Source of the DNA: a virus
Lineage: Duplodnaviria > Caudoviricetes
Length of the DNA: 31,398 bases
IMG/VR virus record: IMGVR_UViG_3300020045_007319
Span: 1-31,398 of that record
Strand: one strand, 5' to 3'
Shown: positions 721 to 31,028 of the stretch, in pieces
Layout: each line of letters opens with the position of its first letter
How positions within the stretch are numbered: the stretch's first letter is position 1
The notes under the pieces: generated by a model
Seen by the model: the letters and a program-made list of their open reading frames with translations, nothing else
The model's database searches: none
Told to the model about the DNA's origin: nothing
Position numbers and translations under genes: made by a program

Positions 721-750
721 AATTATTCTCCTTATTTATTTTACGTTGAT

Positions 751-1312: not shown

Positions 1313-1382
1313 GACTAGAGAAAATTGTTTTTAATACATTTTAAGTGTTTTAGACTACAACCACACAAGTGACGTTCATGTT

Positions 1383-1550
1383 CTATTTAACTTGTTTTAG
1401 TAGTTCTGAAATTTTATTCATTTGTTCCAAAACTTTATCTAATGTATCTCCCGGAACAAATGGGTTTAAGAGATTATCTAATTGTTCTTCTATTCTATCT
1501 TTTCTTTTATAGAATTCATTAATATCTTTTTCTTCTTTTTCTTTATTCAT
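1383..1550 (-). CDS. Small hypothetical protein, 55 aa (below ORF-track cutoff)
   Basis: TAAGGAGTATTAAAATG start; MNKEKEEKDINEFYKRKDRIEEQLDNLLNPFVPGDTLDKVLEQMNKISELLKQVK. Confidence 0.7.
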   Translation of the reverse strand: MNKEKEEKDINEFYKRKDRIEEQLDNLLNPFVPGDTLDKVLEQMNKISELLKQVK

Positions 1551-1561
1551 TTTAATACTCC

Positions 1562-1957: not shown

Positions 1958-1968
1958 TTTAATACTCC

Positions 1969-2091
1969 TTATTTAACCAATTTGCCTATAGAACCATTAA
2001 AAGCCCATATACAGAGTAGCAATATCCCAATAGGAGGACAAGCTATACCAACAATAATTAATCCCAATATACCAATAAAACTACTAATCAT
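1969..2091 (-). CDS. Small membrane peptide, 40 aa (below ORF-track cutoff)
   Basis: AAGGAGAATAAAAATG start; MISSFIGILGLIIVGIACPPIGILLLCIWAFNGSIGKLVK fills the gap between neighbouring genes. Confidence 0.7.
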   Translation of the reverse strand: MISSFIGILGLIIVGIACPPIGILLLCIWAFNGSIGKLVK

Positions 2092-2104
2092 TTTTATTCT
2101 CCTT

Positions 2105-2323
2105 TCAATAACCAAGAATAACTAGTTCAAGCTTATACTTCCTAGACATATCCAACTTAGCCTGTTCTACCAACTTAGTTCCATTAAACAATCCAAGGAA
2201 CGTCCAAACTGTCTCAATATCATTAATATCAATTTCTTTGCTAGTATTAATCCTCTTCTCAGCTTCAAGTGCCATCTTCTTAGTCTCATCATTCTTTACA
2301 GTTATCTTCATTTCTCTATCCAA
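2105..2323 (-). CDS. Hypothetical protein, about 70 aa (true start may be ATG at 2311)
   Basis: First gene after the leftward promoter; ends in TGA immediately followed by the next SD. Confidence 0.7.
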   Translation of the reverse strand: MDREMKITVKNDETKKMALEAEKRINTSKEIDINDIETVWTFLGLFNGTKLVEQAKLDMSRKYKLELVILGY

Positions 2324-2368
2324 CCTTTCTTCTTTTGTTTATCTACTACCTTCTCTGACCATGAAACT

Positions 2369-2396
2369 AGTATAACAGATTCCTAAAAATAAGCAA
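2369..2396 (-). promoter_or_regulatory. Leftward early sigma-70-type promoter
   Basis: TTGCTT-16 bp-TATACT with extended -10 (TGnTATACT). Confidence 0.6.
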
Positions 2397-2421
2397 GAAA
2401 AAAATAAATAAAAATAATTAG

Positions 2422-2448
2422 AGGGATTTGAATATTAAATAAAGAATA
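2422..2448 (+). repeat. 27-bp inverted repeat, copy B, overlapping the rightward promoter
   Basis: Matches the reverse complement of 405-431; contains the -35 of TTGAAT-17 bp-TACATT (2428-2456). Confidence 0.85.
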
Positions 2449-2488
2449 AATACATTAGAATTTTTTAAGAATAAAAAGGAGAGTTCTA

Positions 2489-2974
2489 ATGAATAAAAAA
2501 TATGATAAGATTCTAGATGAGATGATAAGAGAACAAACATTAAAATCAGTAAAGGAGATATTATATGACTTATACGGAGCAAAATTATTATCAGTTAACG
2601 ATGAAAGTATTCCAACAAATGGATACTTTGACTACACTTTTCAAAGAGGGGAAACAATTAAAAAAATCGAAGGAGAAAAAACATCTTATTATTGGACAAC
2701 AAAAAATTCAGAATATAACGGAACTTCACAATTACCTTTCGTTGATTTTGCAAAAAGAAAGCTAGAGCACAACATTGCAGACATATTCATAATAATAGAT
2801 GATTTAAATAGATATGCATTTATTATTAGTAGAGAAAAATTATTTAAGAATTGTAAGTTTATTCAGAAGGATACACGTTATAGAGATAATGAGGACTTTG
2901 CTAGAATAGAAACGAAATATGGGAGTATAATAAAGAAAGATAAGCTAAATGATAAATGGATAAAGGAGGTTTAA
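2489..2974 (+). CDS. Putative PD-(D/E)XK-like nuclease-fold protein
   Basis: SD AAAGGAG; FDY...KIEGEK resembles the D...(E)xK catalytic pattern; family call is by eye. Confidence 0.45.
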   Translation: MNKKYDKILDEMIREQTLKSVKEILYDLYGAKLLSVNDESIPTNGYFDYTFQRGETIKKIEGEKTSYYWTTKNSEYNGTSQLPFVDFAKRKLEHNIADIFIIIDDLNRYAFIISREKLFKNCKFIQKDTRYRDNEDFARIETKYGSIIKKDKLNDKWIKEV

Positions 2975-3166
2975 ATGAAGAAGAAAAGAATAGATATAAA
3001 TAAACATGGGAAATATTTGTTATTGTTATCTAAAATCAAATCAGCTAATAAGCAAGATTTTTGGGACTTTTTTAAATCAGAAAAAGAACTTATCCAAAAA
3101 ATAGAAGAAGGAGAAAAATATAATTATGATTTGTACCTTGCCAGCAGAAGAAATATTGAACACTAA
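2975..3166 (+). CDS. Hypothetical protein, 63 aa
   Basis: SD AAGGAGG; abuts the previous stop codon. Confidence 0.75.
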   Translation: MKKKRIDINKHGKYLLLLSKIKSANKQDFWDFFKSEKELIQKIEEGEKYNYDLYLASRRNIEH

Positions 3167-3689
3167 AATAAAAAAATATCAATGGATTATAGGTTCAATA
3201 ATATTCCAATATAATTGTCCAAATAATTTAAAGGAAGATTGTACTAGCATAGGCAAAGAATCACTTATAGAAGCATTAGAAACTTATGACGAATCTAAAG
3301 GTAAATTATCTAGCTGGATTTTCTTCCGTGTGAGAATGAAAATTCAAAATTATTTATCTAGTGAAAGAATAAAAGGAGTAAAGGCAAGTAGACAGACAGC
3401 TAATAAATATTCAATAAATGCAAATAATGATTTACCAGATTGTACAGAACATGAAAACCCATTAACAATAATTTTAGAACAGGAGGATAAAAACGAAATA
3501 AATAAAAAATACGTAGAAACAATAAATAAACTTAATAGAAAAGTAACAAAAAAACAACGTAATATATTTTTAAGCTACTATAGAAACGAGAAGAGTATGA
3601 AGCAAATATCGGATGAAGAAAAAATAAGTTTGGGAAATGTTTCTGAAATTTTAAAGTTGTGCCGGAACATAATTAAAGGAGTAAAATGA
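3126..3689 (+). CDS. Sigma-70 family RNA polymerase sigma factor (regions 2 and 4)
   Basis: Region 2-like LIEALETYDESKGKLSSWIFFRVR; region 4 HTH KQRNIFLSYYRNEKSMKQISDEEKISLGNVSEIL. Confidence 0.85.
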   Translation: MICTLPAEEILNTKIKKYQWIIGSIIFQYNCPNNLKEDCTSIGKESLIEALETYDESKGKLSSWIFFRVRMKIQNYLSSERIKGVKASRQTANKYSINANNDLPDCTEHENPLTIILEQEDKNEINKKYVETINKLNRKVTKKQRNIFLSYYRNEKSMKQISDEEKISLGNVSEILKLCRNIIKGVK

Positions 3690-3883
3690 ATTTAAAAATA
3701 ATTGCAAGTATAAAAATAATCAATCAGGAAAACGAAGAATTGATTAAAGAACTTGGAGAAGGGTTAAGTATAAATGAAGAAACAATAAATTTATTCAAAG
3801 ATAACAATACATTAAAATATTATTTACACGATATCTGGCTTGGAAGTTTGAGTGATAGAGTTATAAAGGAAATACTTAAATGA
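3686..3883 (+). CDS. Hypothetical protein, 65 aa
   Basis: ATGA-coupled to both neighbours; SD AAAGGAG. Confidence 0.75.
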   Translation: MNLKIIASIKIINQENEELIKELGEGLSINEETINLFKDNNTLKYYLHDIWLGSLSDRVIKEILK

Positions 3884-4212
3884 TAAAGAAGCAAACTAAT
3901 AAAAATAAATGGATAGTTTTTTCTAAAGAATTAAAAAATAATGGGAATTTTCATTTTTGTCAGATGTGTGGATGTTCGGAAGGCAAAATAGACTTACATC
4001 ATATTTTTAAGAAAACTAATTATAAGAGTAAATATTGGTTTGACGAAGGAATAATAATTTCGTTATGTCCAAAGCATCATAAATTTGGAACTGAGTCTGC
4101 CCACGGAAATCCTATATTTTTTGCAGATTGGTTAAAAGAAAATAAGCCGGACACTTGGAATTATGTAATGAAAATAACCTTAAAAGAAATGGGACTAAGA
4201 CTACCTAAATAA
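3880..4212 (+). CDS. HNH-type endonuclease (NinG/Ref-like)
   Basis: CQMCG...DLHHI...LCPKHH zinc-binding beta-beta-alpha-metal motif. Confidence 0.8.
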   Translation: MIKKQTNKNKWIVFSKELKNNGNFHFCQMCGCSEGKIDLHHIFKKTNYKSKYWFDEGIIISLCPKHHKFGTESAHGNPIFFADWLKENKPDTWNYVMKITLKEMGLRLPK

Positions 4213-4213
4213 T

Positions 4214-4225
4214 TTTTATACTATT
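4214..4225 (+). promoter_or_regulatory. Putative late promoter motif TTTTATACTATT (only plus-strand copy)
   Basis: Exact motif ending 5 bp before the ATG of the holin-like gene. Confidence 0.65.
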
Positions 4226-4230
4226 CTATT

Positions 4231-4488
4231 ATGAGTATAGATAATAATATAGAAGCAATAGAAAAAGAATTAGTAGACAATAGTAAGCCTTGGTATCTTA
4301 GTAGAATTATAATAATAAATATAGGATTAATTGTTATTTATATTTTAGGTATACTAGGAATTAATCTTTATGATTTAGGTTGGGATGAACAAAGACTTAA
4401 CACTCTTGCCTCTCTAGTTATTCCAATAATTAATATCTATCTTAGAATTTCCACTGATAAACCTATTAAAAGAAAAGTTAGAAAATAA
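4231..4488 (+). CDS. Holin-like membrane protein (two TM segments)
   Basis: KPWYLSRIII motif, two hydrophobic helices, basic C-terminus, 85 aa. Confidence 0.6.
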   Translation: MSIDNNIEAIEKELVDNSKPWYLSRIIIINIGLIVIYILGILGINLYDLGWDEQRLNTLASLVIPIINIYLRISTDKPIKRKVRK

Positions 4489-4825
4489 TATCTTTTATTC
4501 TAATATCCAAGACATTTATAAGATTCCCATCACCTTTTTTTCCGTAAACTAATTGGATAATTTCTGGATAAGTATCATAAAAGTTAATAAAGAAACTAAT
4601 ATAATTTCCTAATGGATTGTTTTGTCCGTAAACCGAATATCTTCCTATTTTTAATTTATACCAATTATCAGATATATTTAACTTTTCATTATTATTGTAA
4701 AGATTTATAAAGTAGAGGTCTCTATCCATTTGATAATTATTTACAATTTTAAGGAATTCAGAATCTATTTTAAATTGAATCTGATCCATGTACTCAAACA
4801 TAGAGAAGCTGTATGTTTTAATCAT
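4478..4825 (-). CDS. Hypothetical protein, 115 aa
   Basis: Last gene of the minus-strand late region, convergent with the holin-like gene. Confidence 0.6.
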   Translation of the reverse strand: MIKTYSFSMFEYMDQIQFKIDSEFLKIVNNYQMDRDLYFINLYNNNEKLNISDNWYKLKIGRYSVYGQNNPLGNYISFFINFYDTYPEIIQLVYGKKGDGNLINVLDIRIKDIIF

Positions 4826-4826
4826 T

Positions 4827-4997
4827 TTATTTCCATTTAAATTCTTTATTCTTCCATCTAGATACGGGGAAAAAATAATTTAGGGCAGAAAAGATTAATC
4901 CTCCAATAGCACAAATAATCGTAACAGGCTCCTTTGGTTTATCTTTAATAGCTCTTTTAATTACAATAGTTCTTGGTTCTATAGGTTTAATAGGCAT
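4827..4997 (-). CDS. Small membrane protein, 56 aa (below ORF-track cutoff)
   Basis: MPIKPIEPRTIVIKRAIKDKPKEPVTIICAIGGLIFSALNYFFPVSRWKNKEFKWK tightly fills the gap between two genes. Confidence 0.6.
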   Translation of the reverse strand: MPIKPIEPRTIVIKRAIKDKPKEPVTIICAIGGLIFSALNYFFPVSRWKNKEFKWK

Positions 4998-4999
4998 AA

Positions 5000-5353
5000 T
5001 TATTTTGAAGCATTATAATAGGCAACTTCTTTTGAACTATTTGAATTATTTTGTCTTATTAAAGATTTAAGATCGTTTTTTATTTCAGAAATATCATTTT
5101 TAATATAAGATAATTGAGTGTCTACCCTAATTAATGTTTCATTCTTACTAAACCTGTCTTTCTCATTATTAGATACAGCATTCTCTAGTGTAGTTAATCT
5201 ATCTCCCATGCTATTTATATTAAAATATAACATCCCAGATAAAAATATTATTCCTATAATCCATACTGAGTTAGAAGAAATAAAATTAGTTAGCCAAGAA
5301 TTATTATCCCCCCTCCATCTCCTTTCTTTATTTTCTTCTACTTCCTTTACCAT
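5000..5353 (-). CDS. Single-TM coiled-coil protein (holin/XhlA-like or spanin-like lysis candidate)
   Basis: TM WIIGIIFLSGMLYF followed by heptad coiled coil; SD AGGAG; located at the end of the tail module. Confidence 0.55.
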   Translation of the reverse strand: MVKEVEENKERRWRGDNNSWLTNFISSNSVWIIGIIFLSGMLYFNINSMGDRLTTLENAVSNNEKDRFSKNETLIRVDTQLSYIKNDISEIKNDLKSLIRQNNSNSSKEVAYYNASK

Positions 5354-5597: not shown

Positions 5598-7070
5598 TTA
5601 TGGATTATTTCCTACCATAGTATTTTGAATTTCTGTTTGAGTTAATGCACGTTTCCAAACCTGTACATCGGCAACACACCCGTTCCATTCTTGACCATAA
5701 GTATTATTTGCTCCAATATAGAATCTTGTCCAATTCATATTTGCAGCAAGTTGTGTTTCAATTTGATTGTCTTGTAATACACCATTTAAATATGTCTTCA
5801 TACGTTTAGTACCATCATCACTAATTACTATTGCTATATGTTTCCATCCAGATATACTTAATGGCAATATAATGGCAGAAGTAGAAGAATAAGTAGAATA
5901 AGTATATAATCCATCATTAAATATATTTCTAGTTGCTTCAAAATAATTGGCAAATCCATTTTCAATATTGCCAAGTATAACCTCAGAAGCAGAACCAGAA
6001 GCATTGTCCCCATCTCTCTTAGCCCAAAATTGTATAGTAAAATTAAATGTTGGTATAGTAGGTATTGATAATCCAGTTCCATAAATTAAATCATTATCAC
6101 CATCAAACTTATATCCACCTAATCCATAAGGAGCAGTTCCATCAGAAGTAGCTCCATCTATAGTTAAATGAGCACTTCCACCATAGGCTCCAGAATAATC
6201 ATTAGCATCCCCATCAAGCTTCCACCATGCCACTAGATCAGCCTGAGGAGCTAATGGAGATACACTTTGAGAACTCGAAGAGTCTACCGAAGAGCTAGAA
6301 GAACTAGAAGAGCTTGAAGAATCTATAGAAGAACTACTTGAACTTGAGCTACTAGAACTTGATTCAGAACTACTTGAAGAACTACTTGAACTTGAAGAGC
6401 TTGAACTAGATTCAGAACTACTAGAAGAGCTTGAATATTGTATAGAAGAACTAGAAGAAGAATACCCAATAGAACTACTACTAGAACTAGAATAATTTAT
6501 AGAACTAGAAGAGCTACTTGACGAATCTACTGAGCTTGAAGAACTACTTGATTCATATTCCTCAAAGAATACTGTGGGTTGTAACGGAGCAATACCCTGT
6601 GCAAAAATATTAAAATTACTATCAGCATCTTCCCAAACAATAGTTATATTAATATTATCCATATTAGTTGTAAAATAAGGAACGTCTAATAAATCTAAAA
6701 ATTGTATTTCTGGGTCTGCACTAGGAGTAGTTATATTATTTAATGTTACTAATTGTTCAGAACTAGAGCTTGAGCTGCTTTCCGAAGAACTTGAAGAGCT
6801 AGAAGATAATTCATTTATTCCAATAGTTCCTACAAAGAATGCATCCTGTCCATAATTATCCCCAATATAAACCTTCCATGTATATAATCCTGCCTCAACT
6901 GGAGAATTAATTAATCCTATACGTAAAGATACACCAGAATTATAATACCAACCATATTTTGTATTTAAAGCATTATGGTCTAATTGTAAATAAGTTGTTC
7001 TAGCATTATAAGAACAAAATTTCTTATTAGTATAGTTGCAATAAATAGTTAATGGAGGATATACAGACAT
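5598..7070 (-). CDS. Tail-associated protein with two poly-Ser tracts and a C-terminal LamG/concanavalin-A-like domain
   Basis: LVAWWKLDGDAND, FTIQFWAK, WKHIAIV, YLNG, WNGCVADVQVWKRALT are LamG motifs; Ser tracts at about 6259-6551 and 6759-6806. Confidence 0.8.
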   Translation of the reverse strand: MSVYPPLTIYCNYTNKKFCSYNARTTYLQLDHNALNTKYGWYYNSGVSLRIGLINSPVEAGLYTWKVYIGDNYGQDAFFVGTIGINELSSSSSSSSESSSSSSSEQLVTLNNITTPSADPEIQFLDLLDVPYFTTNMDNINITIVWEDADSNFNIFAQGIAPLQPTVFFEEYESSSSSSSVDSSSSSSSSINYSSSSSSSIGYSSSSSSIQYSSSSSSSESSSSSSSSSSSSSSSESSSSSSSSSSSSIDSSSSSSSSSSSVDSSSSQSVSPLAPQADLVAWWKLDGDANDYSGAYGGSAHLTIDGATSDGTAPYGLGGYKFDGDNDLIYGTGLSIPTIPTFNFTIQFWAKRDGDNASGSASEVILGNIENGFANYFEATRNIFNDGLYTYSTYSSTSAIILPLSISGWKHIAIVISDDGTKRMKTYLNGVLQDNQIETQLAANMNWTRFYIGANNTYGQEWNGCVADVQVWKRALTQTEIQNTMVGNNP

Positions 7071-7909: not shown

Positions 7910-8731
7910 TTATATTCCACTTGAACTTGAACTAGAACTACTTGAAGAATCTACAGAACTAGAAGAACTTGAGCTTGAACTAGAGCTTGAATAACTAGAA
8001 GAGCTTGAACTGCTTGAACTAGAATCTATTGAACTACTAGAACTAGAACTAGAATTATCCTCATCATAAAAATTAGGAAATCTTTGTTTTGTTCCTACTC
8101 CTGTTGACTGATAATGAATATCTATATAATGAATAAATGGTGCTTGGTCTAAAGTATCGGCAACATCAGCAGCATTTCTATATGTTCTAACTAAAATAAT
8201 ACCATCTGGCTCTAAATTATCACTATCTATTTGATTACCACTAGGGCTTGCAGCAGATAATTGAACTTCAGCAATATTATGCATGTATTGAGTTGTAGAT
8301 GCTGTTTGTACTACTGAGGTTGTTATAGGGGCAGAAAATCCAGCTTGTTGATGTCCTTTAGCATAAATAACATCAAAATAAAATTTAATATCACCAGGGG
8401 CACCAGCAGTACCACCAGTGTCAATAACAATTTGAGACCAATGTACGTGAATATAAATATCTGTTCCTACTACATAATCATGAGGCATATGAAATTCATG
8501 AAATACTTCTTTTATTCCAGCAGTTGCTCCTAAAGAATATTGGTACACATTTCCACGATAAACTGTTAAAGTCGGATCGGTTGCACCCAATGTTTTTATA
8601 ACGATATTACCTATTAAATCTCTCCAACCAAAAGTCGGATTATATAAGTCTACTTTTATACCAAACCAATTTTCTTTTGGCAATACTAATGCTGTAGTTA
8701 TATTTACATTATCTAATTGTTGTGTGCTCAT
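7910..8731 (-). CDS. Putative virion accessory protein with C-terminal poly-Ser tail
   Basis: Beta-rich domain with MPHDYVVGTDIYIHVHW motif; about 45-residue Ser tract ending SSSSGI. Confidence 0.7.
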   Translation of the reverse strand: MSTQQLDNVNITTALVLPKENWFGIKVDLYNPTFGWRDLIGNIVIKTLGATDPTLTVYRGNVYQYSLGATAGIKEVFHEFHMPHDYVVGTDIYIHVHWSQIVIDTGGTAGAPGDIKFYFDVIYAKGHQQAGFSAPITTSVVQTASTTQYMHNIAEVQLSAASPSGNQIDSDNLEPDGIILVRTYRNAADVADTLDQAPFIHYIDIHYQSTGVGTKQRFPNFYDEDNSSSSSSSSIDSSSSSSSSSSYSSSSSSSSSSSSVDSSSSSSSSSSGI

Positions 8732-16222: not shown

Positions 16223-16933
16223 TTATTTATCCTTATTAGATTTATTACACCAAAATAAATCATTCTTTCTTCCTCTATTATTATTTTGAACATTAAAACC
16301 ATAATACTTTAAATATATCTCTAATATATTCATAGAAAATTTATCATAACCATCTATTAAACATATATAAGGTATCCCATCATCAAAGAAATTATGATAT
16401 TCACCAACTATAATATCTACCTTGTCTAATTTATTACTTGTCAATAAAATAGGATATTCAGAACCCTCACAATCTAATTTTAATAATATTTTATTCTCTG
16501 GATATTTATTTTCTATCTCTTCAATTATTTTATCTAAAGCAATTGTTTGAACATTATAATTTTTATTACCTCTAGTTTCACTTTGTATTACATTATGAGA
16601 GCCAGTATTTAGTTTATTATTCTCTCCAAAGATAACCATATTTAATTCTGGCATTTCTTTCAGGTCACTTCTCCAGACTGCCAGATTATTTAATTGAACA
16701 TTAGAATATTCTTTTAAATTTTTGCATGCTAGATTATAATTATCTATCATTGGCTCATAAGCATAAATAAATTTTGCATTACGTTGAATACAAGCATAAG
16801 TAAAGCAACCGATATGAGCACCAATGTCAATAATAATATAGTTATCTAATGATTCTTGCAGTTTATAATCATTACGGTTGACAACTTCGGCATAAACAAT
16901 ATTATCCCAAGTATTCTCACGTATAGTAATCAT
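16223..16933 (-). CDS. FkbM-family SAM-dependent methyltransferase
   Basis: IIDIGAHIGCF, YAYEP, LKLDCEGSEYPIL, IVGEYH motifs. Confidence 0.9.
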   Translation of the reverse strand: MITIRENTWDNIVYAEVVNRNDYKLQESLDNYIIIDIGAHIGCFTYACIQRNAKFIYAYEPMIDNYNLACKNLKEYSNVQLNNLAVWRSDLKEMPELNMVIFGENNKLNTGSHNVIQSETRGNKNYNVQTIALDKIIEEIENKYPENKILLKLDCEGSEYPILLTSNKLDKVDIIVGEYHNFFDDGIPYICLIDGYDKFSMNILEIYLKYYGFNVQNNNRGRKNDLFWCNKSNKDK

Positions 16934-16938: not shown

Positions 16939-18858
16939 TTAATCTGCTTCTGTACCTGAACCAGAATTATATATTCTTGCAATTTCAGTAGCATCAATAG
17001 CACCGTCATATACTCTAACATCATCAATACTACCATTAAATCCCCAATCATAACCTGCTCCACCATCCCAATGTGCTCCAACTGCAAATCCATCAGAAGT
17101 ACTTATTGTTCCGGGACTTGTTGTTTGAGCATCCAAAGAACCGTCAACATATAATTTTAGGTTATTAGAACCAAGTGCACCATCATAAATACCTACTACA
17201 TGATGCCAAGCTCCATTATTTATTACAGCAGTAGATACTAATACTGTTGCACCTATTGAGAAAGTAATACCACCAACATTAGAATTATCATAATGTAATG
17301 CCATTCTTCCGTTATAAAATGCTCCTACAACAGGTTTTTCAGCAGCATAGGTACTAAATCTAACCCAAGCAGCTAATGAAACAGCAGACTTACCGTTGAA
17401 GTATCCTGTTAAGCTAGGTATTTGTACAATATTCCCATATGTAGCAAAGTCAGATGTAAATGTTAATGATGTATTAATTTTTCCAGTGTCTGTTAGGTTG
17501 ACAGTATTTGTATTAGCATCTCCATAATAATTTGTAGTAGTATCTGCAACATCCGTACTAGCAGCATTATCATTCATTAAATAATGTGCAATTTGAGTAA
17601 ATGGAGCTACACTTTGAGAGCTTTCACTTGAGTTACTTGAAGAACTACTAGAAGAACTTTCACTTGAATATTCTTCAGAGCTTTCACTACTTGAAGAATC
17701 TATAGAGCTAGAAGAACTAGAACTTGATTCAGAACTACTTGAGCTACTAGAACTTGAAGAACTAGAACTGTCTATAGAGCTACTTGAAGAAGAACTAGAA
17801 GAATTACTAGAACTAGAGCTTGAAGAACTACTAGAAGAACTAGAAGACGAAGAACTATCAAAAGAACTAGAGCTAGAAGAATTATAAGGTTCTGCATTAC
17901 TACTAATTACCCATGTACCAACTTCACTTCCATCATCTAATGTATATTTATTACCAAAACTACAACCACTAAATCTTATTTCTGCAATTATTACTTCTTC
18001 ATTATAATCATATCTTAATCCAATACTTATTTTTTTATCAATAGAATATTCAGTTATAGCATATTGACTAAAATCTCCCAATATAATACTTTCATCATCA
18101 CTTAATTGTTCTAATACATTTACTTTTTTGCCTAGAATATAAGCAGAATTATTATCAAAAGTTATCCACTCTTCATAATTTGCATCAACAATTAAATCTA
18201 TTATTTCATTCCATACCTTTTTACTAACATACCATTGAGCTTTATTAGCAACAGCAGGAGCCAATGCCTTCTCAAAGTTTTTAATCGTATCTAAATCTAT
18301 AGGATCATTAGCTACTGCACTTATCACTCCAGAGGTTCCAACACTAAATATACCTTCAATTTTATTTAATTTACCAAAAAGAATTGCATAATCTAAATAC
18401 CAAGCCAATGTAGTTCCTGCCAAATCAATTAAAAATCCATCTAGCTCATTTACATCACTTAATATTTCATCTGTACAAGGAATTTCTACACATAATTTCT
18501 GTAATTTTAATTGTCTAGAATCACATTGAATTGTAGATATCGTTTTTTGTTCACCTTCATTAGTAAAATATGCTCTTAGCCCGTTAGCTCTTGCATATTC
18601 TCTAGTTGATTCTGTTATAAAAGGAATGTTTAATCCGTATCTGGCAGAATTAACTTTTTTAGCTTGCTTATATAATATCGAACCCTGTTGAATAGCATAT
18701 AGGAAATCTTTACAAATATCATAAGTAACTAAATTTAATCCATTACTATCTTCACCTATACCAGTAATAGATTTATTTATTATTGACTTATCATATTCTT
18801 TTCTATAACATTTTTTATAGAACTCTTGAATATATTTTCCTAATGTTATGTTTTGCAT
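16939..18858 (-). CDS. HK97-fold capsid paralog 3 fused via poly-Ser to a LamG domain
   Basis: The first ~320 aa align with 22466..23650 and 21157..22380 (EGEQKTIS, LQKLCVEIP, ILGDFSQY); Ser tract at about 17611-17880; LamG motifs WHHVVGIYDG, LYVDG, FNGSIDDVRVYD. Confidence 0.85.
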   Translation of the reverse strand: MQNITLGKYIQEFYKKCYRKEYDKSIINKSITGIGEDSNGLNLVTYDICKDFLYAIQQGSILYKQAKKVNSARYGLNIPFITESTREYARANGLRAYFTNEGEQKTISTIQCDSRQLKLQKLCVEIPCTDEILSDVNELDGFLIDLAGTTLAWYLDYAILFGKLNKIEGIFSVGTSGVISAVANDPIDLDTIKNFEKALAPAVANKAQWYVSKKVWNEIIDLIVDANYEEWITFDNNSAYILGKKVNVLEQLSDDESIILGDFSQYAITEYSIDKKISIGLRYDYNEEVIIAEIRFSGCSFGNKYTLDDGSEVGTWVISSNAEPYNSSSSSSFDSSSSSSSSSSSSSSSSSNSSSSSSSSSIDSSSSSSSSSSSSSESSSSSSSSIDSSSSESSEEYSSESSSSSSSSNSSESSQSVAPFTQIAHYLMNDNAASTDVADTTTNYYGDANTNTVNLTDTGKINTSLTFTSDFATYGNIVQIPSLTGYFNGKSAVSLAAWVRFSTYAAEKPVVGAFYNGRMALHYDNSNVGGITFSIGATVLVSTAVINNGAWHHVVGIYDGALGSNNLKLYVDGSLDAQTTSPGTISTSDGFAVGAHWDGGAGYDWGFNGSIDDVRVYDGAIDATEIARIYNSGSGTEAD

Positions 18859-18881
18859 TTTTCTTATGTCCTTATATATTT

Positions 18882-18893
18882 AATAGTATAAAA
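18882..18893 (-). promoter_or_regulatory. Putative late promoter motif
   Basis: Exact TTTTATACTATT upstream of the capsid-LamG/FkbM/gp10 unit. Confidence 0.7.
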
Positions 18894-18907
18894 ATTCTTT
18901 AGGTTCT

Positions 18908-19957
18908 TTATGGACAACTACCCAATACAGAACTTGCTCCATATCCCCAATCTCCAACAGGCTCAACACTTGGATTATTATAGTATGTTGCTGGATAAAT
19001 AGAATCACCAAAGATACCCCAATATCCACCTATACTATACCAAGCAATATAATAACCTGGATTATCGTCACTTACATAAACTGGTTTACCGTCTATTATT
19101 GAACCATCGGCTGTATAAGTTCCATCTACTCCATTTATAGAATCTGTTCCAGACATACATACATAATTATCAACAGAACTTGAGCTTGAAGAGTCTTGAG
19201 AACTAGAACTACTTGAATCTTCTTCCGAACTTGAACTTGAACTTGAGCTAGAAGAACTAGAACTACTAGAGCTAGAACTTGAAGTGCCTATACTTGAACT
19301 AGAACTACTTGAAGAACTACTAAAGCTACTACTAGAACTAGAAGAAGAAGAACTATCTATTGAACTTGAAGAACTAGAACTTGAACTAGAACTATTTTTT
19401 AATGAGCTACTTGAAGACTCGGTTGAAGAACTACTAGAGCTTTGACTTTGTATATCTATAGAAGAACTAGAAGAAGAACTATCTTGAGAACTTGAGCTTG
19501 AACTATCTTGAGAACTTGAAGAAGAATTATCATAACAATAATCTAATTTTTCTACAGTAAACTCATATTCCATTATCCCCATAAAATAATGGTCTTCATT
19601 CTGATATCTAATATAATCATTTTCTTTATGATAACATACAACACCTTTCCCACAACTAGTATCGGGAATTTCTAAATAGTCTCTATAATTAAATAACGAT
19701 TCTACTTCCATCATTACATTTCTTAAAGTTTGTGTTGAAGGGTCATTATCAAATATAGAAAATTGCACATAGATTCTTTCTCTATCTCTAGTAAATGAAT
19801 CATAAATTCTATTTGCACTAATTACAGAATAAGTTATAAATGGATATGTTGCTTCATCTGGTGCAATATATGGATAAAATTCTGCATCAGTAACATTTAA
19901 ATTCAATCTATTATATATTAATTGTAATACTTGGTCTTGTAATATCATTTTATACAC
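18908..19957 (-). CDS. Tail terminator-like protein (DUF3168-like) with poly-Ser tract and C-terminal extra domain
   Basis: YPYIAPDEATYPFITY...YVQFSIF terminator pattern; about 117-codon Ser-rich tract; about 85-aa aromatic-rich C-terminal domain. Confidence 0.7.
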   Translation of the reverse strand: MYKMILQDQVLQLIYNRLNLNVTDAEFYPYIAPDEATYPFITYSVISANRIYDSFTRDRERIYVQFSIFDNDPSTQTLRNVMMEVESLFNYRDYLEIPDTSCGKGVVCYHKENDYIRYQNEDHYFMGIMEYEFTVEKLDYCYDNSSSSSQDSSSSSSQDSSSSSSSIDIQSQSSSSSSTESSSSSLKNSSSSSSSSSSSIDSSSSSSSSSSFSSSSSSSSSSIGTSSSSSSSSSSSSSSSSSSSEEDSSSSSSQDSSSSSSVDNYVCMSGTDSINGVDGTYTADGSIIDGKPVYVSDDNPGYYIAWYSIGGYWGIFGDSIYPATYYNNPSVEPVGDWGYGASSVLGSCP

Positions 19958-20297
19958 TCCTTAGCTGTGAAGTTTGAGGAGCTTCTATAACTAATAACAA
20001 TATTTCAAGGTGATGATTTAAACAATTATCTATGTTCACAATATTATGCCAACGATTTCTAATAAAAATAATATCAGTAGATTCTATATTTATAAAATCA
20101 CAGAACAATCTATAGTCAGCAACAACATTATTTTTTCCAAGATAAGAACGTTCTCTTCCTGAAAGTTGTGTGTAATAGCATTTCTGGTCTGCAAATTTAA
20201 TTACTGAAGTTCTTATCTGTCCTCCAATATTATCAAAACTTGTTACCTCATTACTATAAATATTACATTTTTCACCGTATAAGGATTGTATTGACAT
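19950..20297 (-). CDS. Head closure/head-tail joining protein
   Basis: DNIGG, LSGRE, HLEI motifs; follows the connector gene. Confidence 0.8.
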   Translation of the reverse strand: MSIQSLYGEKCNIYSNEVTSFDNIGGQIRTSVIKFADQKCYYTQLSGRERSYLGKNNVVADYRLFCDFINIESTDIIFIRNRWHNIVNIDNCLNHHLEILLLVIEAPQTSQLRSV

Positions 20298-21131
20298 TTA
20301 GAATAAACCTTTTTTTGTGAACTGGTCTAGCTGATTAGAATATTGCCATAGAATATTTTTAATTGTTGTTGCATCATTTAAAGTATAGGAATAATTTGTT
20401 ATTGATTCACTCTTATATATTCCTAAACTTGGAGAAGCATTAGCCGTAATCATATCTCTAATAATATTTGCAGCAATCATTTGTAAATCTAATGGCATTG
20501 TAGCAGAAGTATAGCCAGCATAAAATATTAGATAAATATTATTATAATAACTATAGCAATCATTCCATAATGTTGTCCAATAAGAATAAGGAATTGAAAC
20601 TGTTCTTTCTGTTCCATCTACATTATGTAAATCTATGTCAATCTTTTCTGCAATATACCAATTCGTTCCACTTACTTGAAATAAAAATTTACTCAAGGTG
20701 CTATCTTTTCCAGATTCAATTGTTATAGTAATTACACCAACATAATCTGATTCTATTTCATTTTTTAATGCAGCTAATGTTGTATAACTAGTAAATAAAT
20801 AATCATCTTGGGATAAATCTAATAGAGTGGTTATTGTTACCCTATCAGATTTTACTTGTACAGAATAATTACCCGTTATAGTTAATGTTGCAGCACTAGT
20901 TTTTGTTCCTACGAATAATATATCTGTAATAGGATATTCTGGTAGAACTAGATAATTTAATTCATTATCTAAATAAAACCATCTAGAATATAATTGTCTA
21001 TCAAAATGCCTATCACAATAATTCTCCATAGCACTTTGAACTGTAGGAATTATATTAGTTATAAAAGTATCATTGGTTGTATCGGTTGTGTTAGTCAGTG
21101 TTTTGTAAGTAGCTAAATCTAATATTGACAT
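20298..21131 (-). CDS. Head-tail connector/adaptor (gp6/gp15-like, long form)
   Basis: MENYCDRHF, YAGY...MPLDLQ, KSESITNYSYT motifs with a large internal insertion. Confidence 0.8.
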   Translation of the reverse strand: MSILDLATYKTLTNTTDTTNDTFITNIIPTVQSAMENYCDRHFDRQLYSRWFYLDNELNYLVLPEYPITDILFVGTKTSAATLTITGNYSVQVKSDRVTITTLLDLSQDDYLFTSYTTLAALKNEIESDYVGVITITIESGKDSTLSKFLFQVSGTNWYIAEKIDIDLHNVDGTERTVSIPYSYWTTLWNDCYSYYNNIYLIFYAGYTSATMPLDLQMIAANIIRDMITANASPSLGIYKSESITNYSYTLNDATTIKNILWQYSNQLDQFTKKGLF

Positions 21132-21156
21132 ATTTGGTCCTCCTCATAATTATTCA

Positions 21157-22380
21157 TTAAACTCCTGAGGACGAACTTTCACTAGAATAGTCTTCACTCG
21201 AACTACTTGAAGAGTCTTGAGAACTACTAGAACTACTTGAAGAACTAGATTCACTACTAGAAGAACTTGAACTACTAGAACTATCTACAGAACTACTAGA
21301 GCTTGAAGAATCTTTACTTGAAGAACTAGAATCTACAGAAGAACTAGAAGATGAAGAACTTGATTCAACTGGTGTAGTACCCTCTGCAACGACGAATGTT
21401 CCCGTTTCTGTTCCATCATCTAAAGTATATTTATTACCAAAGCTACATCCACTAAATCTAACTTCCATAATTAATATATCTTCATTGTAATCAGCAAATC
21501 TAAATCCAATAGATATTTTCTTGTCTACTTGATATTCAGTTATTACATATTGTCAAAAATCTCCAAGAATAATTCCTTCATCCCCAGATAATTGTTCTAA
21601 TACATTTACTTTATGTCCGAATATATAAGCAGAGCCATCGTTACCAAATGTTATCCAACGATTTGTAGAAGCATCAAGAATTAAATCTACTATGTCATTC
21701 CAATTTTCTTTAGAGAAATACCATTCAGCATTTTTAGAAACGGCAGGACTTAGTGCTTTTTCAAAGTTCTGTAAAACGGTAACTGTTAATGGGTCAGCCG
21801 ATGTAGCAGAAATTACTCCACCGGGATTGCTTCCACTAAATATTCCTTCAATTCTACTTGTCCCATAAATCATTGCATAATCAATATACCAACTAAGTGT
21901 ATCGGTTGCAAAGGCTAATAGGGCAGAATCTAAACTTTGTACATCTTCCATCAACTCTAATGTTACTGGAATTTCTACACATAGTTTTTGTAATTTAATA
22001 CTTCTAGAATCCCATTGAACTTTAGAAATAGTTTTTTGTTCACCTTCTCCTACGAAAAATGCTCTCAATCCAGTAGAACGGTCATTATCTCTAGCTGTTT
22101 CTGTTACATAGGGAATTTTAATACCAAACTTAGGAGAACTAATTTTCTTAGCTTTTTTATATAATACTGATCCTTGTTGAGTTGCAGCTAAAAATTCTCT
22201 AACAATATCATAAGTGACTAGTGCAGCACCATTTCCATCTTCACTAATACCTGTTACAGCCTTAGTTATAATTGATTTATCGAATGGTTTGCCTTTAGAT
22301 TTTTTTGTAAATTCTTGAATAAATGAACCAAGTGTCAATTTATTTTCTTTATTTATTTCTTGTGTAGTTACGTTACTCAT
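21157..22380 (-). CDS. HK97-fold capsid paralog 2 with poly-Ser tail, interrupted by one in-frame TGA (21553-21555)
   Basis: ORFs 21553..22380 and 21157..21468 share one frame; reading through gives GDF*QYVITEYQVDKKISIGFRFADYNEDILIMEVRFSGCSFGNKY, collinear with paralog 3; 407 aa if read through. Confidence 0.8.
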
Positions 22381-22414
22381 TTTTGGTGTCCTTCCTTTAA
22401 TGATTATTTTTTAT

Positions 22415-22458
22415 AAAAAGAAAAGGGAAGAGTAAGTTTTTAGTTTACTCTTCCCTTT
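22415..22458 (-). terminator. Intrinsic terminator after the major capsid gene
   Basis: 14-bp stem AAAGGGAAGAGTAA (22422-22435) / TTACTCTTCCCTTT (22445-22458) followed by a U-rich tract. Confidence 0.85.
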
Positions 22459-22465
22459 ATTCAAC

Positions 22466-23650
22466 TTAGAATCTTGCAGAGAATCCAGCTACGACTGAAC
22501 TATCGACAAGAGTTTGCTTACGGATTGTAGGAGCACCAGAAGCACGGAACTCTAGGATATAATTCATTTCATTATAATCGAAACGAAGTGAGGCATCCAT
22601 GAATTCTCTCATTCCACCCTTAATAGCAACAACATAAGTAGAAGGATTACCAAATATGATATCTCCATTACTGTTTAGGTTGGCTAATTGTTCGGCTACA
22701 ACTACAGGATATCCCATCAATGTTTTACCAGATACATCAACCATAGCACCAAAAGGAGTTACGTTAGATGCTGTGGTAGATAGGTCCATCATGCTTGCCC
22801 ATGCTTTATTAGACATATAGAACTTAGAACCAGCACGATACTGAGGCAATACACCAGCAATAAGATTAATTATGCTAGCCTTTGTCATAGTAGCAGCAAC
22901 AGTAGCCAAAGCTCTGAAGTTATCTGCACCAGTATGTGTAATACCGACGAATCCATTTGTAGCATAAACACCATTAAATACTAGTTCGTCAAGTGTCCAT
23001 GCCATTTTCTCTCTTGCTTTATTTTTGAACCAATTTTCTAGAATATCAACGTCTTGAAGAATTTCATCGGTAACTGCTATTCTAATAACCTGTTTTTTTA
23101 GAGCTAGAGGAATTTGACCAAACTGAGGAATAGTAATGGTCTTTTGAGCACCTTCAGCAACTGCATAACTTCTAGGAACGGATGTAGCTGTGTTACCAGT
23201 ATTCAAATCATAAGGAATATTAATACCAGTTGCTCTATCTCCAAGTGTTATTTTGGTTGTATCATTATAAATAACTCCACCGGGAATAGCAACAGATACA
23301 ATATCTTTAAATATTTCTGTATAAGTTAAATATCCACCAGCAGCATTATCAGTTTCATTAAGACCTGTAACAGCCTTAGTCATCATCTGAAGAGTTTCAC
23401 CCATGCTTTTCTTCTGAATTGCAGGTGCTTTAACTTCAATCTTACCTTCTTTTTCTACTATCTCTGACATTTTTATCTCCTTCACTTCTTGTTTAATAAT
23501 CACTTCTTTCTCTTGTTCTTCTACTTCCTTTGTATATTCAATAACTTGTCCGTCTGCAATTAATTGTTTACCAACTTCATCACTAACTTCAATTACCGAA
23601 TCTTTCTCAACAGTTTTAAGAACTTCAGAACTTAATACTTTTACTTGCAT
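22466..23650 (-). CDS. Major capsid protein, HK97 fold
   Basis: AGGYL, VAEGAQK, VTDEILQD, LMGYPVVV, IIFGN motifs; follows the protease; strong SD and downstream terminator. Confidence 0.92.
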   Translation of the reverse strand: MQVKVLSSEVLKTVEKDSVIEVSDEVGKQLIADGQVIEYTKEVEEQEKEVIIKQEVKEIKMSEIVEKEGKIEVKAPAIQKKSMGETLQMMTKAVTGLNETDNAAGGYLTYTEIFKDIVSVAIPGGVIYNDTTKITLGDRATGINIPYDLNTGNTATSVPRSYAVAEGAQKTITIPQFGQIPLALKKQVIRIAVTDEILQDVDILENWFKNKAREKMAWTLDELVFNGVYATNGFVGITHTGADNFRALATVAATMTKASIINLIAGVLPQYRAGSKFYMSNKAWASMMDLSTTASNVTPFGAMVDVSGKTLMGYPVVVAEQLANLNSNGDIIFGNPSTYVVAIKGGMREFMDASLRFDYNEMNYILEFRASGAPTIRKQTLVDSSVVAGFSARF

Positions 23651-23736: not shown

Positions 23737-25053
23737 TTACACAACTTTTCCACTTTTAATATCTTTTAATATTTTAATTGCAAATGATTTATCTTCTTCA
23801 CTAGCAATATAAGACCCTTTTCTAACAATTTTAAATTTAATTTCTTTTTCTTCTTTTTTGGGCTCTTCAATATTAGTTTTAAATTTATGGTCTTCTAGCC
23901 ATTTAACAACTTGCTCTTTATTAAACTTATCTGCATCAAATCTAATAGACTGTAATTCTGTAGCTCCATCAGAAGTTATTCCATAAATAAAATCTATTCC
24001 TGCTCCACCTTTATCTTTAGCATAACGGAATTTAACATATTTATCTGGGTCATTCTGTCTAGCTGCAAAATAATTAGGAAATGGTTTTTCATCCTGCATA
24101 TCTTCCATTGGCATATCTGTTGCATCTTCTGGGCATTGCATACATTCTGGACAATCACTCATCATACAATCACATTCTTTTGTTTCTTTATTTTCTTTAG
24201 ATTCTTCTTCGGGCATATCTTCCATTGGCATTTCTTGACCACATGTAGGACACTTCTCTTTTTTACAATCTTCTGGTTTTTCTTCAGGCATATCTTCTGG
24301 CATTACTTCACCCATATCTCCAGCAGGTTTATTCATTTCTTTATTTTCTTTTAGATTTATTTCTTTATTATCCATTCCAATTATTTTTATATCTTCTACC
24401 TTCATATTTCTAATTTTAACTGTAGAATCTATTCCTAATTCTTTTTGCAACTTATCTGATATTTTTAATGACTTAGCAGAAACAGCCTCAATTAAAGCAT
24501 TTTCATTAGAAGGAATAGATACAAGTGAATTCTCATATAAATCAAATGAAGTAATAATTCTAATACAATCTTGAATATTATTAGATATACCATTAAGATT
24601 CTTTGTTATAAATTCATTAAATTCTTTTGTTCCTTTAATTAATGCTTTCTTTGCAACGAACCCAATAGAATTACATTTTATATATCCACCCTTTACTAAA
24701 CTCCAAATTTCATCTGCCTGTTCTGTTTCTGCAATTTGAATGGTTGCTTTAATATTATTTTTATTTATTTGAAGAGAAGTCACTTTGCCAATGGGAGGGG
24801 AGGAGTGACTATGAGACCAAAGAACAACGGGATTCTTTAAAAATTTAGTCGGGTCACATCCCATTGAATAAACTACATCACCATCTGCATCAACATCTGT
24901 AGTACTAATAACTGCCTCAAATGTTCTAGAAGGTTCGTCAACAATTAAATCTTCACTTAATTCTTTTCTAGTAATAACATCATTTTCTTTAATTTCTATT
25001 TCACTATCTAAAAAATTAGCTATAGAACTTAATTTAACTTCTTTCTTTGACAT
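23737..25053 (-). CDS. HK97-family prohead protease with long C-terminal extension
   Basis: VDADGDVV, NPVVLWSH, PIGK, SIGF, LYENSLVSIPSN motifs. Confidence 0.92.
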   Translation of the reverse strand: MSKKEVKLSSIANFLDSEIEIKENDVITRKELSEDLIVDEPSRTFEAVISTTDVDADGDVVYSMGCDPTKFLKNPVVLWSHSHSSPPIGKVTSLQINKNNIKATIQIAETEQADEIWSLVKGGYIKCNSIGFVAKKALIKGTKEFNEFITKNLNGISNNIQDCIRIITSFDLYENSLVSIPSNENALIEAVSAKSLKISDKLQKELGIDSTVKIRNMKVEDIKIIGMDNKEINLKENKEMNKPAGDMGEVMPEDMPEEKPEDCKKEKCPTCGQEMPMEDMPEEESKENKETKECDCMMSDCPECMQCPEDATDMPMEDMQDEKPFPNYFAARQNDPDKYVKFRYAKDKGGAGIDFIYGITSDGATELQSIRFDADKFNKEQVVKWLEDHKFKTNIEEPKKEEKEIKFKIVRKGSYIASEEDKSFAIKILKDIKSGKVV

Positions 25054-26402: not shown

Positions 26403-27395
26403 TTACCAACCGACTCCTATAACCAATCCAGACTTTCTAACAATATCTCTTTGATGATTATATTTTGAGGCTAATGGTGTAGTAAATTCTGTTGCATGAT
26501 ATTTTAAATTAGGATTAGAATCATGAAATCTTTGTATCCAATTAATTAAATCACTATCACTTAATTCGTCACCGTTATATGGATGTTTATATGATTGCAA
26601 TTGTACGAAGTCACAAGATAGTCCTTTAACTAAATCTGGATCAGTTAAATGAACAGATACAGGAAGTGAAGGAAAACATTTTCTACAATAATCTATAGCT
26701 CTCTGTAATTTTTTAACATCTTTACCAACTAACTTCTCTGCTTCCCAAGATGCTGTAACTGAGTGAACCGAATTAGGATATGTTCCATTATTCTTCATAT
26801 CTGTTTCATACCATTCTCCAATTATTTTTACAGCCTTTTGCCAATCTGAAGAATCTGGGTCATTCCATTTATTTAAATCATCTCCACAAGCTAACACCAT
26901 ACTAGGAGAAAACTTTTTAAATACCCACCAAACTGCACACCAATGAGCTATTAAATCAGGATTCAATCTTCCATTACCTAATAAATTGTTATATCTTGCT
27001 CCGGGAAAAGGACTTACAATGCCTCTTGAATCATTATTTAAGAATAACATAGGAGCCCAAGAACAATTAGGGTTAATTAATCTCATAGCATTTAAAATTT
27101 CATTTCTTTGATTATCCATTTCTTTATCTTTATCATGAGAGTGAAGATTAAATGATAATAGATTAAATAAAGAATTTCTTCCTGAACCACCTTTTACCCA
27201 ACCTTCTTTATCTTTAACGAAGAAGACTGTATCTTGCTTGCCATTATTATTTGTTGTGTTTGTATTAGTTGTAGTTGTTTGAGTTGTAGTAGGAATAGGA
27301 ATAGTTATTAATGTTGTAGTTGAAGTAGTTGTTGTAGGCTTATATTTATTTATTAATTCTTTTAGTTTATTTAATATATTAGAGAAGAATGACAT
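26403..27395 (-). CDS. Hypothetical protein with Thr-rich linker and possible glycoside-hydrolase-like alpha/beta barrel
   Basis: Amphipathic N-terminal helix, poly-Thr/Asn tract, then alternating strands and helices with SWEAE and ATEF glutamates. Confidence 0.45.
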   Translation of the reverse strand: MSFFSNILNKLKELINKYKPTTTTSTTTLITIPIPTTTQTTTTNTNTTNNNGKQDTVFFVKDKEGWVKGGSGRNSLFNLLSFNLHSHDKDKEMDNQRNEILNAMRLINPNCSWAPMLFLNNDSRGIVSPFPGARYNNLLGNGRLNPDLIAHWCAVWWVFKKFSPSMVLACGDDLNKWNDPDSSDWQKAVKIIGEWYETDMKNNGTYPNSVHSVTASWEAEKLVGKDVKKLQRAIDYCRKCFPSLPVSVHLTDPDLVKGLSCDFVQLQSYKHPYNGDELSDSDLINWIQRFHDSNPNLKYHATEFTTPLASKYNHQRDIVRKSGLVIGVGW

Positions 27396-29498: not shown

Positions 29499-31028
29499 TT
29501 ATTTTCCAAAGAAAGAATAATAATATTTACCGATATGTCTAAGAATGATTGAAGTGTCAGCATATATTTTATATCCATCGTTTTTAGCTATCTGACAAAA
29601 AGCCCAATCTTCACTCAATAGTTTTCTAAGATTAGGTTTATCCTTATTTTTAAATTCAAATATTCCTACTGCACAGAAATTATATACTGTTTTCCCTTTA
29701 GCTCCTTCATCTCCAGTATAAGATAATTCTGGATGTTTATTAACAATATCTTCTAGCATTCCTCTTTTTAGCATCCAGCATCCACTAGATAGCCATAACA
29801 TTTCTCTTAGTCCTGAATCAAATTTTATATCTGTAATTGTTTGGTCTGCCGTAACAGAAGAGCACCTAGGGACTTTATCCATTGATTTTAATTGGTACAA
29901 ACCTCCATTGAAATCTTTATCACCTGCAACTAATTTATCGAATATATTATTATCTCTAGTACAATTCCCTATTTCTAAGTCTGAATCTATAGAGCAAAAG
30001 AATTGGTGGTCTTTATGTTCTTGGAGGAATTTTGACATATGTATATTCCGACAACGTTGTATAAGTGAATCTCCACAAGTATTATGAATTAGAATTTGGT
30101 GTTTAGAAGAACCTATTGCTTGATATAGAGAGGACATAAAAGAGAATTCTGGACGGTCTAATATAGGGATTGAACAGAATATTTTTTGAGGTTCGTGTTT
30201 TATTTCAACAATTTTCTTTTCTTCTTTTATTGGTTGTATTGGTTGTATTGGTTTGTCACTTATGATTTTATTTTCTTTATTAAAATATTGTCCTTTTGGG
30301 TCAATTAATTCCCATTTTTCTTTAAATGTTGGCAATCCTTTTATTTTCCCGTTCTCTAATTTTCCATCATAATAATCGGGCTTAAGAATTAATTTCTTTT
30401 TATTTTTTAATTTTAATAAGTCAAATAGATTTGCAAAACAACTATCTATACAAACAATTTCTTCTGCTTTCTCTGCAATTAATATCCAATCCATTATATT
30501 ATCTGTCTGGGTAGTTATCTCTATTAGATTGCTATTGTTTTCATTCTTTAGTTTAATAACCCTATCAGAAGCAATTAGGTGTGCTAGGGTATATTTACAA
30601 TCTTTATTTGTTCCTATTACTCTGTCAAATAATTCCTGTTCTCTTTCTATATTTCTATTTACGTTAAAATTCCATTTGTTTTCGAATGGCACATTTCCCA
30701 AAAAATATTTATAAGCATCGAATGATAATTTTTTCTGGTTATCATATGCTTCAGTATTCTTTTTATCAGAATCATTAAAATGAAAATCCGTGTCTATTAT
30801 AAAATCACAATCTTTCATTACTTCTATAGCTTGGGTTCTACTATTATGTGGAACTGCTTTTATTGGAATATACTTAATATAGTCTGAGAATTGCTTACAT
30901 GAATTTTCGTATTGTTTACAGATTGGGAAGATAATATCTGTTTTATAAAGGGAATGAAGATATTCTGCCATTCCATTTAAAATTACTATATCTCCGAGTT
31001 TGGCTGTGTTTAAGATTCCTACTGACAT
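29499..31028 (-). CDS. Two-domain glycosyltransferase (GT-B/GT9-like N half plus GT-A/GT2-like C half)
   Basis: N half KLGDIV...IVCIDSCFANL; C half FCSIDSDL (DxD), SGCWMLKR, LSEDWAFC, IYADTSIILRHIG. Confidence 0.8.
   Translation of the reverse strand: MSVGILNTAKLGDIVILNGMAEYLHSLYKTDIIFPICKQYENSCKQFSDYIKYIPIKAVPHNSRTQAIEVMKDCDFIIDTDFHFNDSDKKNTEAYDNQKKLSFDAYKYFLGNVPFENKWNFNVNRNIEREQELFDRVIGTNKDCKYTLAHLIASDRVIKLKNENNSNLIEITTQTDNIMDWILIAEKAEEIVCIDSCFANLFDLLKLKNKKKLILKPDYYDGKLENGKIKGLPTFKEKWELIDPKGQYFNKENKIISDKPIQPIQPIKEEKKIVEIKHEPQKIFCSIPILDRPEFSFMSSLYQAIGSSKHQILIHNTCGDSLIQRCRNIHMSKFLQEHKDHQFFCSIDSDLEIGNCTRDNNIFDKLVAGDKDFNGGLYQLKSMDKVPRCSSVTADQTITDIKFDSGLREMLWLSSGCWMLKRGMLEDIVNKHPELSYTGDEGAKGKTVYNFCAVGIFEFKNKDKPNLRKLLSEDWAFCQIAKNDGYKIYADTSIILRHIGKYYYSFFGK

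Follow-up and report, generated by a model that had tools for sequence, protein, structure and literature searches.

The virus record IMGVR_UViG_3300020045_007319 (Duplodnaviria; Caudoviricetes), a stretch of 31,398 nucleotides that we refer to as the window, encodes three proteins of the HK97 capsid fold, a main capsid protein (P1) and two paralogs (P2 and P3). We tentatively favor the reading that the phages of this family maintain a second HK97-fold protein, likely for the capsid vertices and as a carrier of stalks, and that in the window a P3 tipped with a LamG domain has likely replaced a broken P2. Taken by itself, the vertex role of the paralog is somewhat more probable than this combined reading; note that its position in the shell, its cleavage, the display of its tail and any binding are what we infer from the genes. 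The features that carry the argument are the following.

22466..23650, minus strand: P1, main capsid protein of 394 residues with a scaffold (delta-type) leader of about 92 residues, a Lys junction and the HK97 fold (PF05065, E 1.8e-28; TIGR01554)
22414..22458, minus strand: terminator-like hairpin with a U-rich tail between P1 and P2 (z -3.2, 0 of 200 shuffles as stable)
21157..22380, minus strand: P2, the paralog at the ancestral position and sister of P3, broken, with a leader of 40 residues, the HK97 fold and a serine tail
21553..21555, minus strand: in-frame TGA in P2
21493..21495, minus strand: one-residue insertion in an otherwise fixed-length stretch of P2
21160..21381, minus strand: serine tract of P2, 74 residues, 72% Ser, TCN and AGY codons mixed
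16939..18858, minus strand: P3, the second paralog, 639 residues, intact
17893..18771, minus strand: HK97 domain of P3, residues 30-322 (structure model and Foldseek)
17602..17892, minus strand: serine linker of P3, 97 residues, 76% Ser
16942..17601, minus strand: LamG / concanavalin-like domain of P3 (PF13385, E 3.6e-23)

The original prediction had described three full-length capsid paralogs that share a set of motifs. All three genes pass the curated PF05065 cut-off (100, 55 and 64 bits versus 24.2) as well as TIGR01554, with the 275-residue open reading frame (ORF) of P2 already doing so on its own, and a profile search found exactly three HK97 matches in the genome. Each of the five quoted motifs occurs once in P1, in P3 and, if the stop is read through, in P2. 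What did not survive is the full length of P2, which is not one ORF but is split by the TGA into the 275-residue frame and a remainder of 131 codons, leaving only P1 and P3 uninterrupted. The claim that P2 and P3 are closer to each other than to P1 was borne out, with 60% identity between them and about 30% of each to P1. As their DNA is only 70% identical over 1212 nt, a chimeric duplicate appears unlikely.

A structure model, the proposed check on the fold, was calculated for P3 only and did show the HK97 fold in full, with E-loop, spine helix and P and A domains. For residues 1-322 an AF2 model, based on the 122-row alignment described below, reached a predicted local distance difference test (pLDDT) value of 85. 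Its best four matches in BFVD include HK97-fold capsid proteins at template modeling (TM) scores of 0.68-0.70, and the best matches in the PDB are HK97-fold shells, among them a gene transfer agent (GTA), Mycofy1, HK97 and a SaPIbov5 procapsid entry.

The second HK97-fold gene in related phages

With P1 as the query, a protein search returned 10 matches including P1 itself, and the paralog of the closest relative retrieved 13 proteins, consisting of the query, 9 other serine-tailed paralogs, the 275-residue ORF of P2 and 2 main proteins. Among 50%-identity representatives, 482 matches were obtained at E <=0.001, the best 150 of which were considered, and 122 rows were aligned, with the part of P2 behind the stop outside the alignment. 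The paralog was found in 27 distinct loci (numbered with the prefix L), some of them from near-identical strains. The main capsid gene precedes the paralog in 19 of the 19 loci with upstream DNA (9 and 10 loci in two sets), once with a nuclease-like gene between the two, and the other 8 of the 27 begin too near the paralog to show the upstream gene. The closest circular relative, G001, has 29.6 kb, the same gene order, a main protein 58% identical to P1 and exactly two HK97 genes, a third profile match being a serine tract. Two HK97 genes are the usual state among the relatives. In some relatives a nuclease-like gene, recognized by visual motif, is inserted directly behind the gene for the main capsid protein or the portal (L004:5028-5828, L034:1683-2321 and L002:8409-9104).

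In a tree of 128 rows, calculated in quick mode with support from the Shimodaira-Hasegawa-like approximate likelihood ratio test (SH-aLRT) only, a branch with 96% support has 18 verified main proteins on one side and 24 verified paralogs plus 40 serine-tailed matches on the other, and judging from this separation the split between main protein and paralog is ancient. Within a locus the two are 27-32% identical in 7 loci and 25-35% in 10 more. Across the 7 paired loci paralogs have a mean pairwise identity of 42% and main proteins one of 40%, with r = 0.90, a correlation that reflects linkage and is no proof of contact. Paralogs share 23 clade-specific conserved residues and usually end in a serine-rich tail of 40-250 residues; tails and end domains vary between relatives. 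The paralog of L033 has no tail and a length of 313 residues, and its persistence argues that it is the HK97 body itself that is kept.

The paralogs are further set apart by their N-terminus. Serine-rich windows are found in 52 of the 122 rows, all 52 of which have a leader of <=51 residues (3 are cut at the N-terminus), and in 10 further pairs the leader has 17-40 residues in the paralogs versus 86-129 in the main proteins. The paralog is thus without the scaffold leader of approximately 90-130 residues, yet the Lys junction at which HK97-type proteases cut is kept: in the further pairs all 10 main proteins and 9 of the 10 paralogs have the Lys, as do 71 of the 122 rows at the junction column, where the count is in part subject to alignment jitter. 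The likely processor is the S78 prohead protease encoded next to P1. The axial stretch, as judged by sequence length, has a median of 105 residues in paralogs (n=23) versus 113 in main proteins (n=18) and is shorter in the paralog in 8 of the 10 further pairs, and the lengths of E-loop and spine are essentially equal.

Downstream of the main gene lies a strong hairpin, both in the window and in 11 of 11 loci when compared with shuffles (z -2.4 to -9.7), and in 10 of 10 further loci by folding alone. A consensus terminator scanner reported none, its loop limit of 8 nt being shorter than the loop of this hairpin. Because of this hairpin, the paralog is likely made in smaller amounts than the main protein. 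Separately, short hairpins with an A-rich loop starting with AAG or CAG, often paired, were noticed in 6 of 14 upstream regions, where they lie between this terminator-like hairpin and the start of the paralog (mean of 0.14 in shuffles, although the motif was defined after seeing the cases). They are located at L002:11250-11310, L006:820-876, L007:390-440, L009:6450-6480, L011:30-60, L019:2035-2085 and window 22381-22400, the last being only an eroded copy. In L002 and L006 one of them covers the ribosome-binding site, and a comparison with Rfam gave no match; they are a candidate element for setting the dose of the paralog.

The likely place of the paralog in the shell

A second, vertex-specific HK97 protein is already a known kind, and the vertex role is likely for the present paralog because it matches the penton-specific subunits T4 gp24, Jabs MCPp and SaPIbov5 Ccm. 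In the Mycobacterium abscessus phage Jabs the 11 pentons are filled by MCPp, the product of the adjacent second HK97-fold gene, which is shorter and whose axial domain is smaller, and C-terminal extensions of the hexon protein MCPh project from the capsomer center (bioRxiv 10.64898/2026.07.24.740622). Jabs resembles the phage of the window in being a siphophage in which two HK97-fold genes adjoin, with the second one shorter and without the long maturation domain. Its pair is, however, only 18% identical, the shell is T=9 and disulfide-linked, and the extension sits on the hexon protein, whereas the pair described here is 25-35% identical, has its serine tail on the second protein and stems from a broad uncultured family. 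T4 gp24, as described in excerpts of PMC9958956, is a pentamer-specific protein that shares about 20% identity with the main capsid protein, of which it is a paralog probably derived from gene duplication, with a short N-terminal peptide that is cut by the prohead protease. T4 differs in being a large prolate myophage with a proven pentamer role, and those excerpts describe no serine tail or lectin-type domain. SaPIbov5 Ccm (PMC8569155) is an HK97-fold homolog of 24% identity that occupies the pentamers only and changes the capsid shape; in contrast to the present paralog it is satellite-encoded, hijacks a helper and has a delta domain of 87 residues of its own. Two traits of dedicated penton proteins, a divergence from the main protein in the range of about 18-30% and a short or absent maturation leader as in gp24 and MCPp, were both found in the paralogs, the former in view of the identities within loci given above.

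According to the mechanism we propose, read-through past the hairpin would provide the paralog at a lower level than P1, and the paralog, without a scaffold leader, would co-assemble on the P1 lattice and be trimmed by the S78 protease after the shared Lys. It would form eleven pentameric vertices with the serine stalks pointing outward, its shorter axial domain being suited to five-fold curvature. Five tails would leave each vertex, and those of P3 would end in a domain of the carbohydrate-binding type for attachment to a host or surface. The weakest step is a possible glycosylation of the serine tracts by enzymes of the phage.

Low-copy, C-terminally extended capsid proteins such as T7 gp10B and Q-beta A1 are made from the main gene by frameshift or read-through. 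Such an origin was rejected here, as the paralog is a separate gene with its own start and the stop in P2 lies inside the fold and not after it; the extension is found on a separate, long-diverged gene. The paralog might nevertheless be a gene-duplication version of T7 gp10B-like proteins, that is, a minor subunit mixed randomly into hexons and pentons that only displays serine stalks. The equal lengths of E-loop and spine, the lower expression expected behind the hairpin, the variability of tails and end domains and the recurrence of serine tracts on other virion proteins would all agree with this. Against it stand the retention of a tail-less paralog in L033, a paralog as well conserved as the main protein, the 23 clade-specific residues and shorter axial loops, and the penton-specific second protein reported in the three known dual-protein cases compared, and we consider random mixing unlikely, if less so than any other alternative.

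The interrupted P2 and the LamG-bearing P3

The TGA of P2 stands directly after a G-D-F motif, in a column that among the 122 rows holds Ser (71), Thr (21), Gly (14), Lys (6), Asn (4), Ala (3), Arg (1), Pro (1) and one gap. The column is never aromatic, and Trp, the usual residue inserted upon UGA read-through, occurs in 0 of 122 rows. As the residues past the stop position supply three further strand segments in the P3 model (266-271, 287-300 and 312-319), the 275-residue product of P2 is predicted to be without the end of the fold. A second oddity is found 20 codons past the TGA, where an extra residue extends to 16 a stretch that has 15 residues in all 40 other verified main and paralog sequences; no row of the alignment, which excludes this part of P2, has an insertion at that site. 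Recoding of TGA (tables 4 or 25) was rejected, because the long genes of the genome contain no other internal in-frame TGA, compared with 114 TGG and 563 Gly codons, and a search of the genome for tRNA genes found none. A second case of a paralog with an in-frame stop was seen in L018 (TAA, L018:412-414), 9 codons upstream of the TGA position of the window and next to a short divergent loop; it may be due to chance or error, and in L013 and L014, both 95% identical to L018, the paralog is intact.

Private changes of P2 at conserved sites number 9 of 154 before the stop and 2 of 33 after it, the 57 codons of the post-stop segment favor a ratio of nonsynonymous to synonymous substitution rates (dN/dS) below ~0.1, and the lack of a second stop in 406 codons bounds neutral decay at ~0.05 substitutions/site. 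For these reasons the break is either recent or false. A real, recent loss is the explanation we lean to, a sequencing or assembly error is a clearly weaker one, and read-through of the stop is weaker still.

P3 shows a different history. It is the sister of P2 with 99% support in the 128-row tree, and with end branches of 0.14 for P2 and 0.51 for P3 it evolves about 3.5 times faster; at the 154 conserved sites it has 31 private changes versus 9 in P2 (p 0.0005). Neutral evolution of the paralogs, which had been named as a point that would speak against a function, was not observed, dN/dS = 1 being rejected on both branches (p ~1e-5), so that P3 stays under purifying selection in spite of its faster rate, and P3 retains 19 of the 23 paralog-specific residues. 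As P2 and P3 have nearly saturated synonymous differences, their split is old; these data do not distinguish duplication in place from import out of a sister phage. The third copy was seen only in this genome: none was present in the 27 paralog loci, just 8 of which extend to the neck or terminator gene, where P3 is located. P3 and an FkbM-family methyltransferase gene sit between terminator and neck genes that adjoin each other in L002. The LamG domain of P3 is 41% identical to one on the head-closure protein of L002, where it is joined via a serine linker, and the closure protein of the window is bare, without a serine-LamG extension. From this arrangement it is likely that recombination in serine-coding tracts has transferred the domain between virion proteins. 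P3 is most likely taking the place of the recently broken P2: it would have made P2 redundant, and P2 would then have broken.

With regard to the original prediction, a minor or vertex subunit displaying an extension is in keeping with the evidence from the paralog family; three co-assembling paralogs are not supported by the sequence in its present form, as P2 is broken inside the fold. That reading is weakened by the stop, and the two-gene module is robust and widespread. Three products could still share one shell if the TGA were a sequencing or assembly error or were read through; P2 would then serve as the standard vertex subunit, with P3 as its LamG variant. P2 is indeed the slow, well-conserved copy, its post-stop codons look constrained, no second stop has arisen in spite of the near-saturation of synonymous sites, and in E. 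coli termination at a UGA with C as the next base is weak. On the other side stand the unique 3-nt insertion, a second odd change that is not a typical short-read error, the absence of Trp from the TGA column, the isolated position of the TGA in a genome where no tRNA gene was found, and the finding of a third copy in none of the 8 related loci long enough to include the neck or terminator gene. We regard this as somewhat less probable again than random mixing. More speculative is an extension of the vertex reading, in which the paralog would be a swappable display socket with five glycosylated serine stalks per vertex and exchangeable binding domains, and the genome would be either in the middle of a swap or in possession of two vertex subunits via a leaky UGA, with three HK97 proteins in one shell.

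A Ccm-like function, in which the paralog controls capsid size or shape or acts only at the portal vertex or during assembly and mature virions may not carry the tail, is very unlikely. Ccm as a 24%-identical capsid homolog does alter shell geometry (PMC8569155), and the paralog gene is situated between head and neck genes, but this gene belongs to the phage and not to a satellite and lies next to the phage's own main gene, and long tails with end domains suggest surface display. Finally, that P3 is a decaying duplicate with a roleless HK97 part, in a defective genome or chimeric assembly, is hardly credible in spite of its faster evolution and a CheckV completeness of 55%, in view of the rejected neutrality, the retained residues, the confident model, the limited DNA identity of P2 and P3 and the likewise circular G001 with its same gene order.

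Several observations weigh against the favored reading of a vertex paralog with P3 in place of P2. Most loci were found via paralog queries, so that main genes without a paralog are poorly sampled, and among 4 loci obtained with the main capsid protein as the query the paralog is present in L002, L003 and L004 are cut off too early to show it, and L005 is distant. The axial shortening is one clade contrast and not 41 independent events, and in 2 of the 10 further pairs, L034 and L035, the axial stretch of the paralog is 1-2 residues longer. Hairpins are common behind capsid genes and indicate no more than 'fewer copies'. P2 shows no substitution decay past the stop, which fits a very recent break and equally a sequencing error. 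Glycosylation of the serine stalks is plausible, with the glycosyltransferase assignment being a lead only.

Genomic surroundings and implications

The window ends overlap by 121 bp and the record is classed as having direct terminal repeats, despite the low CheckV estimate; G001 likewise combines terminal repeats with a low completeness (36%). The genes of the minus strand run from terminase and portal via the S78 protease, P1, P2 and the adaptor, closure and tail terminator genes to P3, the FkbM methyltransferase and the neck gene, followed by probable tube, chaperone and tape-measure genes named by position, with weak or no profile matches.

23737..25053, minus strand: prohead protease (S78; PF04586 above cut-off)
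20298..21131, minus strand: head-tail adaptor (phrog_442), which comes after the paralog in relatives
19950..20297, minus strand: head-closure protein, 115 residues
18908..19957, minus strand: tail terminator with a serine tract of 125 residues (phrog_176)
16223..16933, minus strand: FkbM-family methyltransferase (PF05050, TIGR01444)
29499..31028, minus strand: two-domain glycosyltransferase-like protein, a lead only (ESM Atlas GT9/GT2 clusters at 0.84-0.90; no Pfam or NCBIfam match)

Positions 1-5000 form a very small non-structural region with sigma-factor-like and HNH-like genes, and no replication gene was found among the 32 window proteins scanned, several small ORFs being outside the scan. 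Between terminase and portal a 330-residue gene with a Thr/Asn-rich N-terminus (26403-27395) has no Pfam, PHROG or NCBIfam match.

Serine tracts of 52-125 residues with 72-77% Ser and mixed codons occur in five window genes, and in relatives the paralog, closure, terminator and tail genes have them as well. Such tracts are carried by many proteins of neck and tail (window 5598-7070, 7910-8731 and 18908-19957; L027:5411-14490; L035:5411-10382), with lengths of up to several hundred residues in relatives, and a second LamG domain was seen at the end of the 490-residue gene of the window. In L027:5411-8860, L034:4856-8674 and L035:5411-10382 the closure or terminator gene is duplicated with one copy serine-extended, and duplication with tail capture therefore recurs across the head-neck module. 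Mycobacteriophages such as Che8, Corndog and Myrna are reported, second-hand in PMC12363180, to glycosylate capsid and tail tube proteins with their own glycosyltransferases; the window combines serine tracts on five of them with the glycosyltransferase-like lead and the FkbM gene.

No description of the family, of its serine tails or of the three-copy state was found in the open-access literature searched or in cultured phage records. Dedicated vertex proteins are known from few cases, namely T4, a satellite and Jabs, and the Jabs preprint (2026) calls its own case unprecedented among icosahedral phages (bioRxiv 10.64898/2026.07.24.740622). With a conserved pair in dozens of 50%-identity clusters of uncultured phages of ~30 kb, shells made of two proteins would count as a common strategy. 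The paired sequences are useful for asking what drives an HK97 subunit to the pentamer rather than the hexamer, the fusion of a serine stalk to LamG is a natural route to domain display at fixed capsid positions, and in annotation the second gene should not be called a redundant or misassembled capsid gene.

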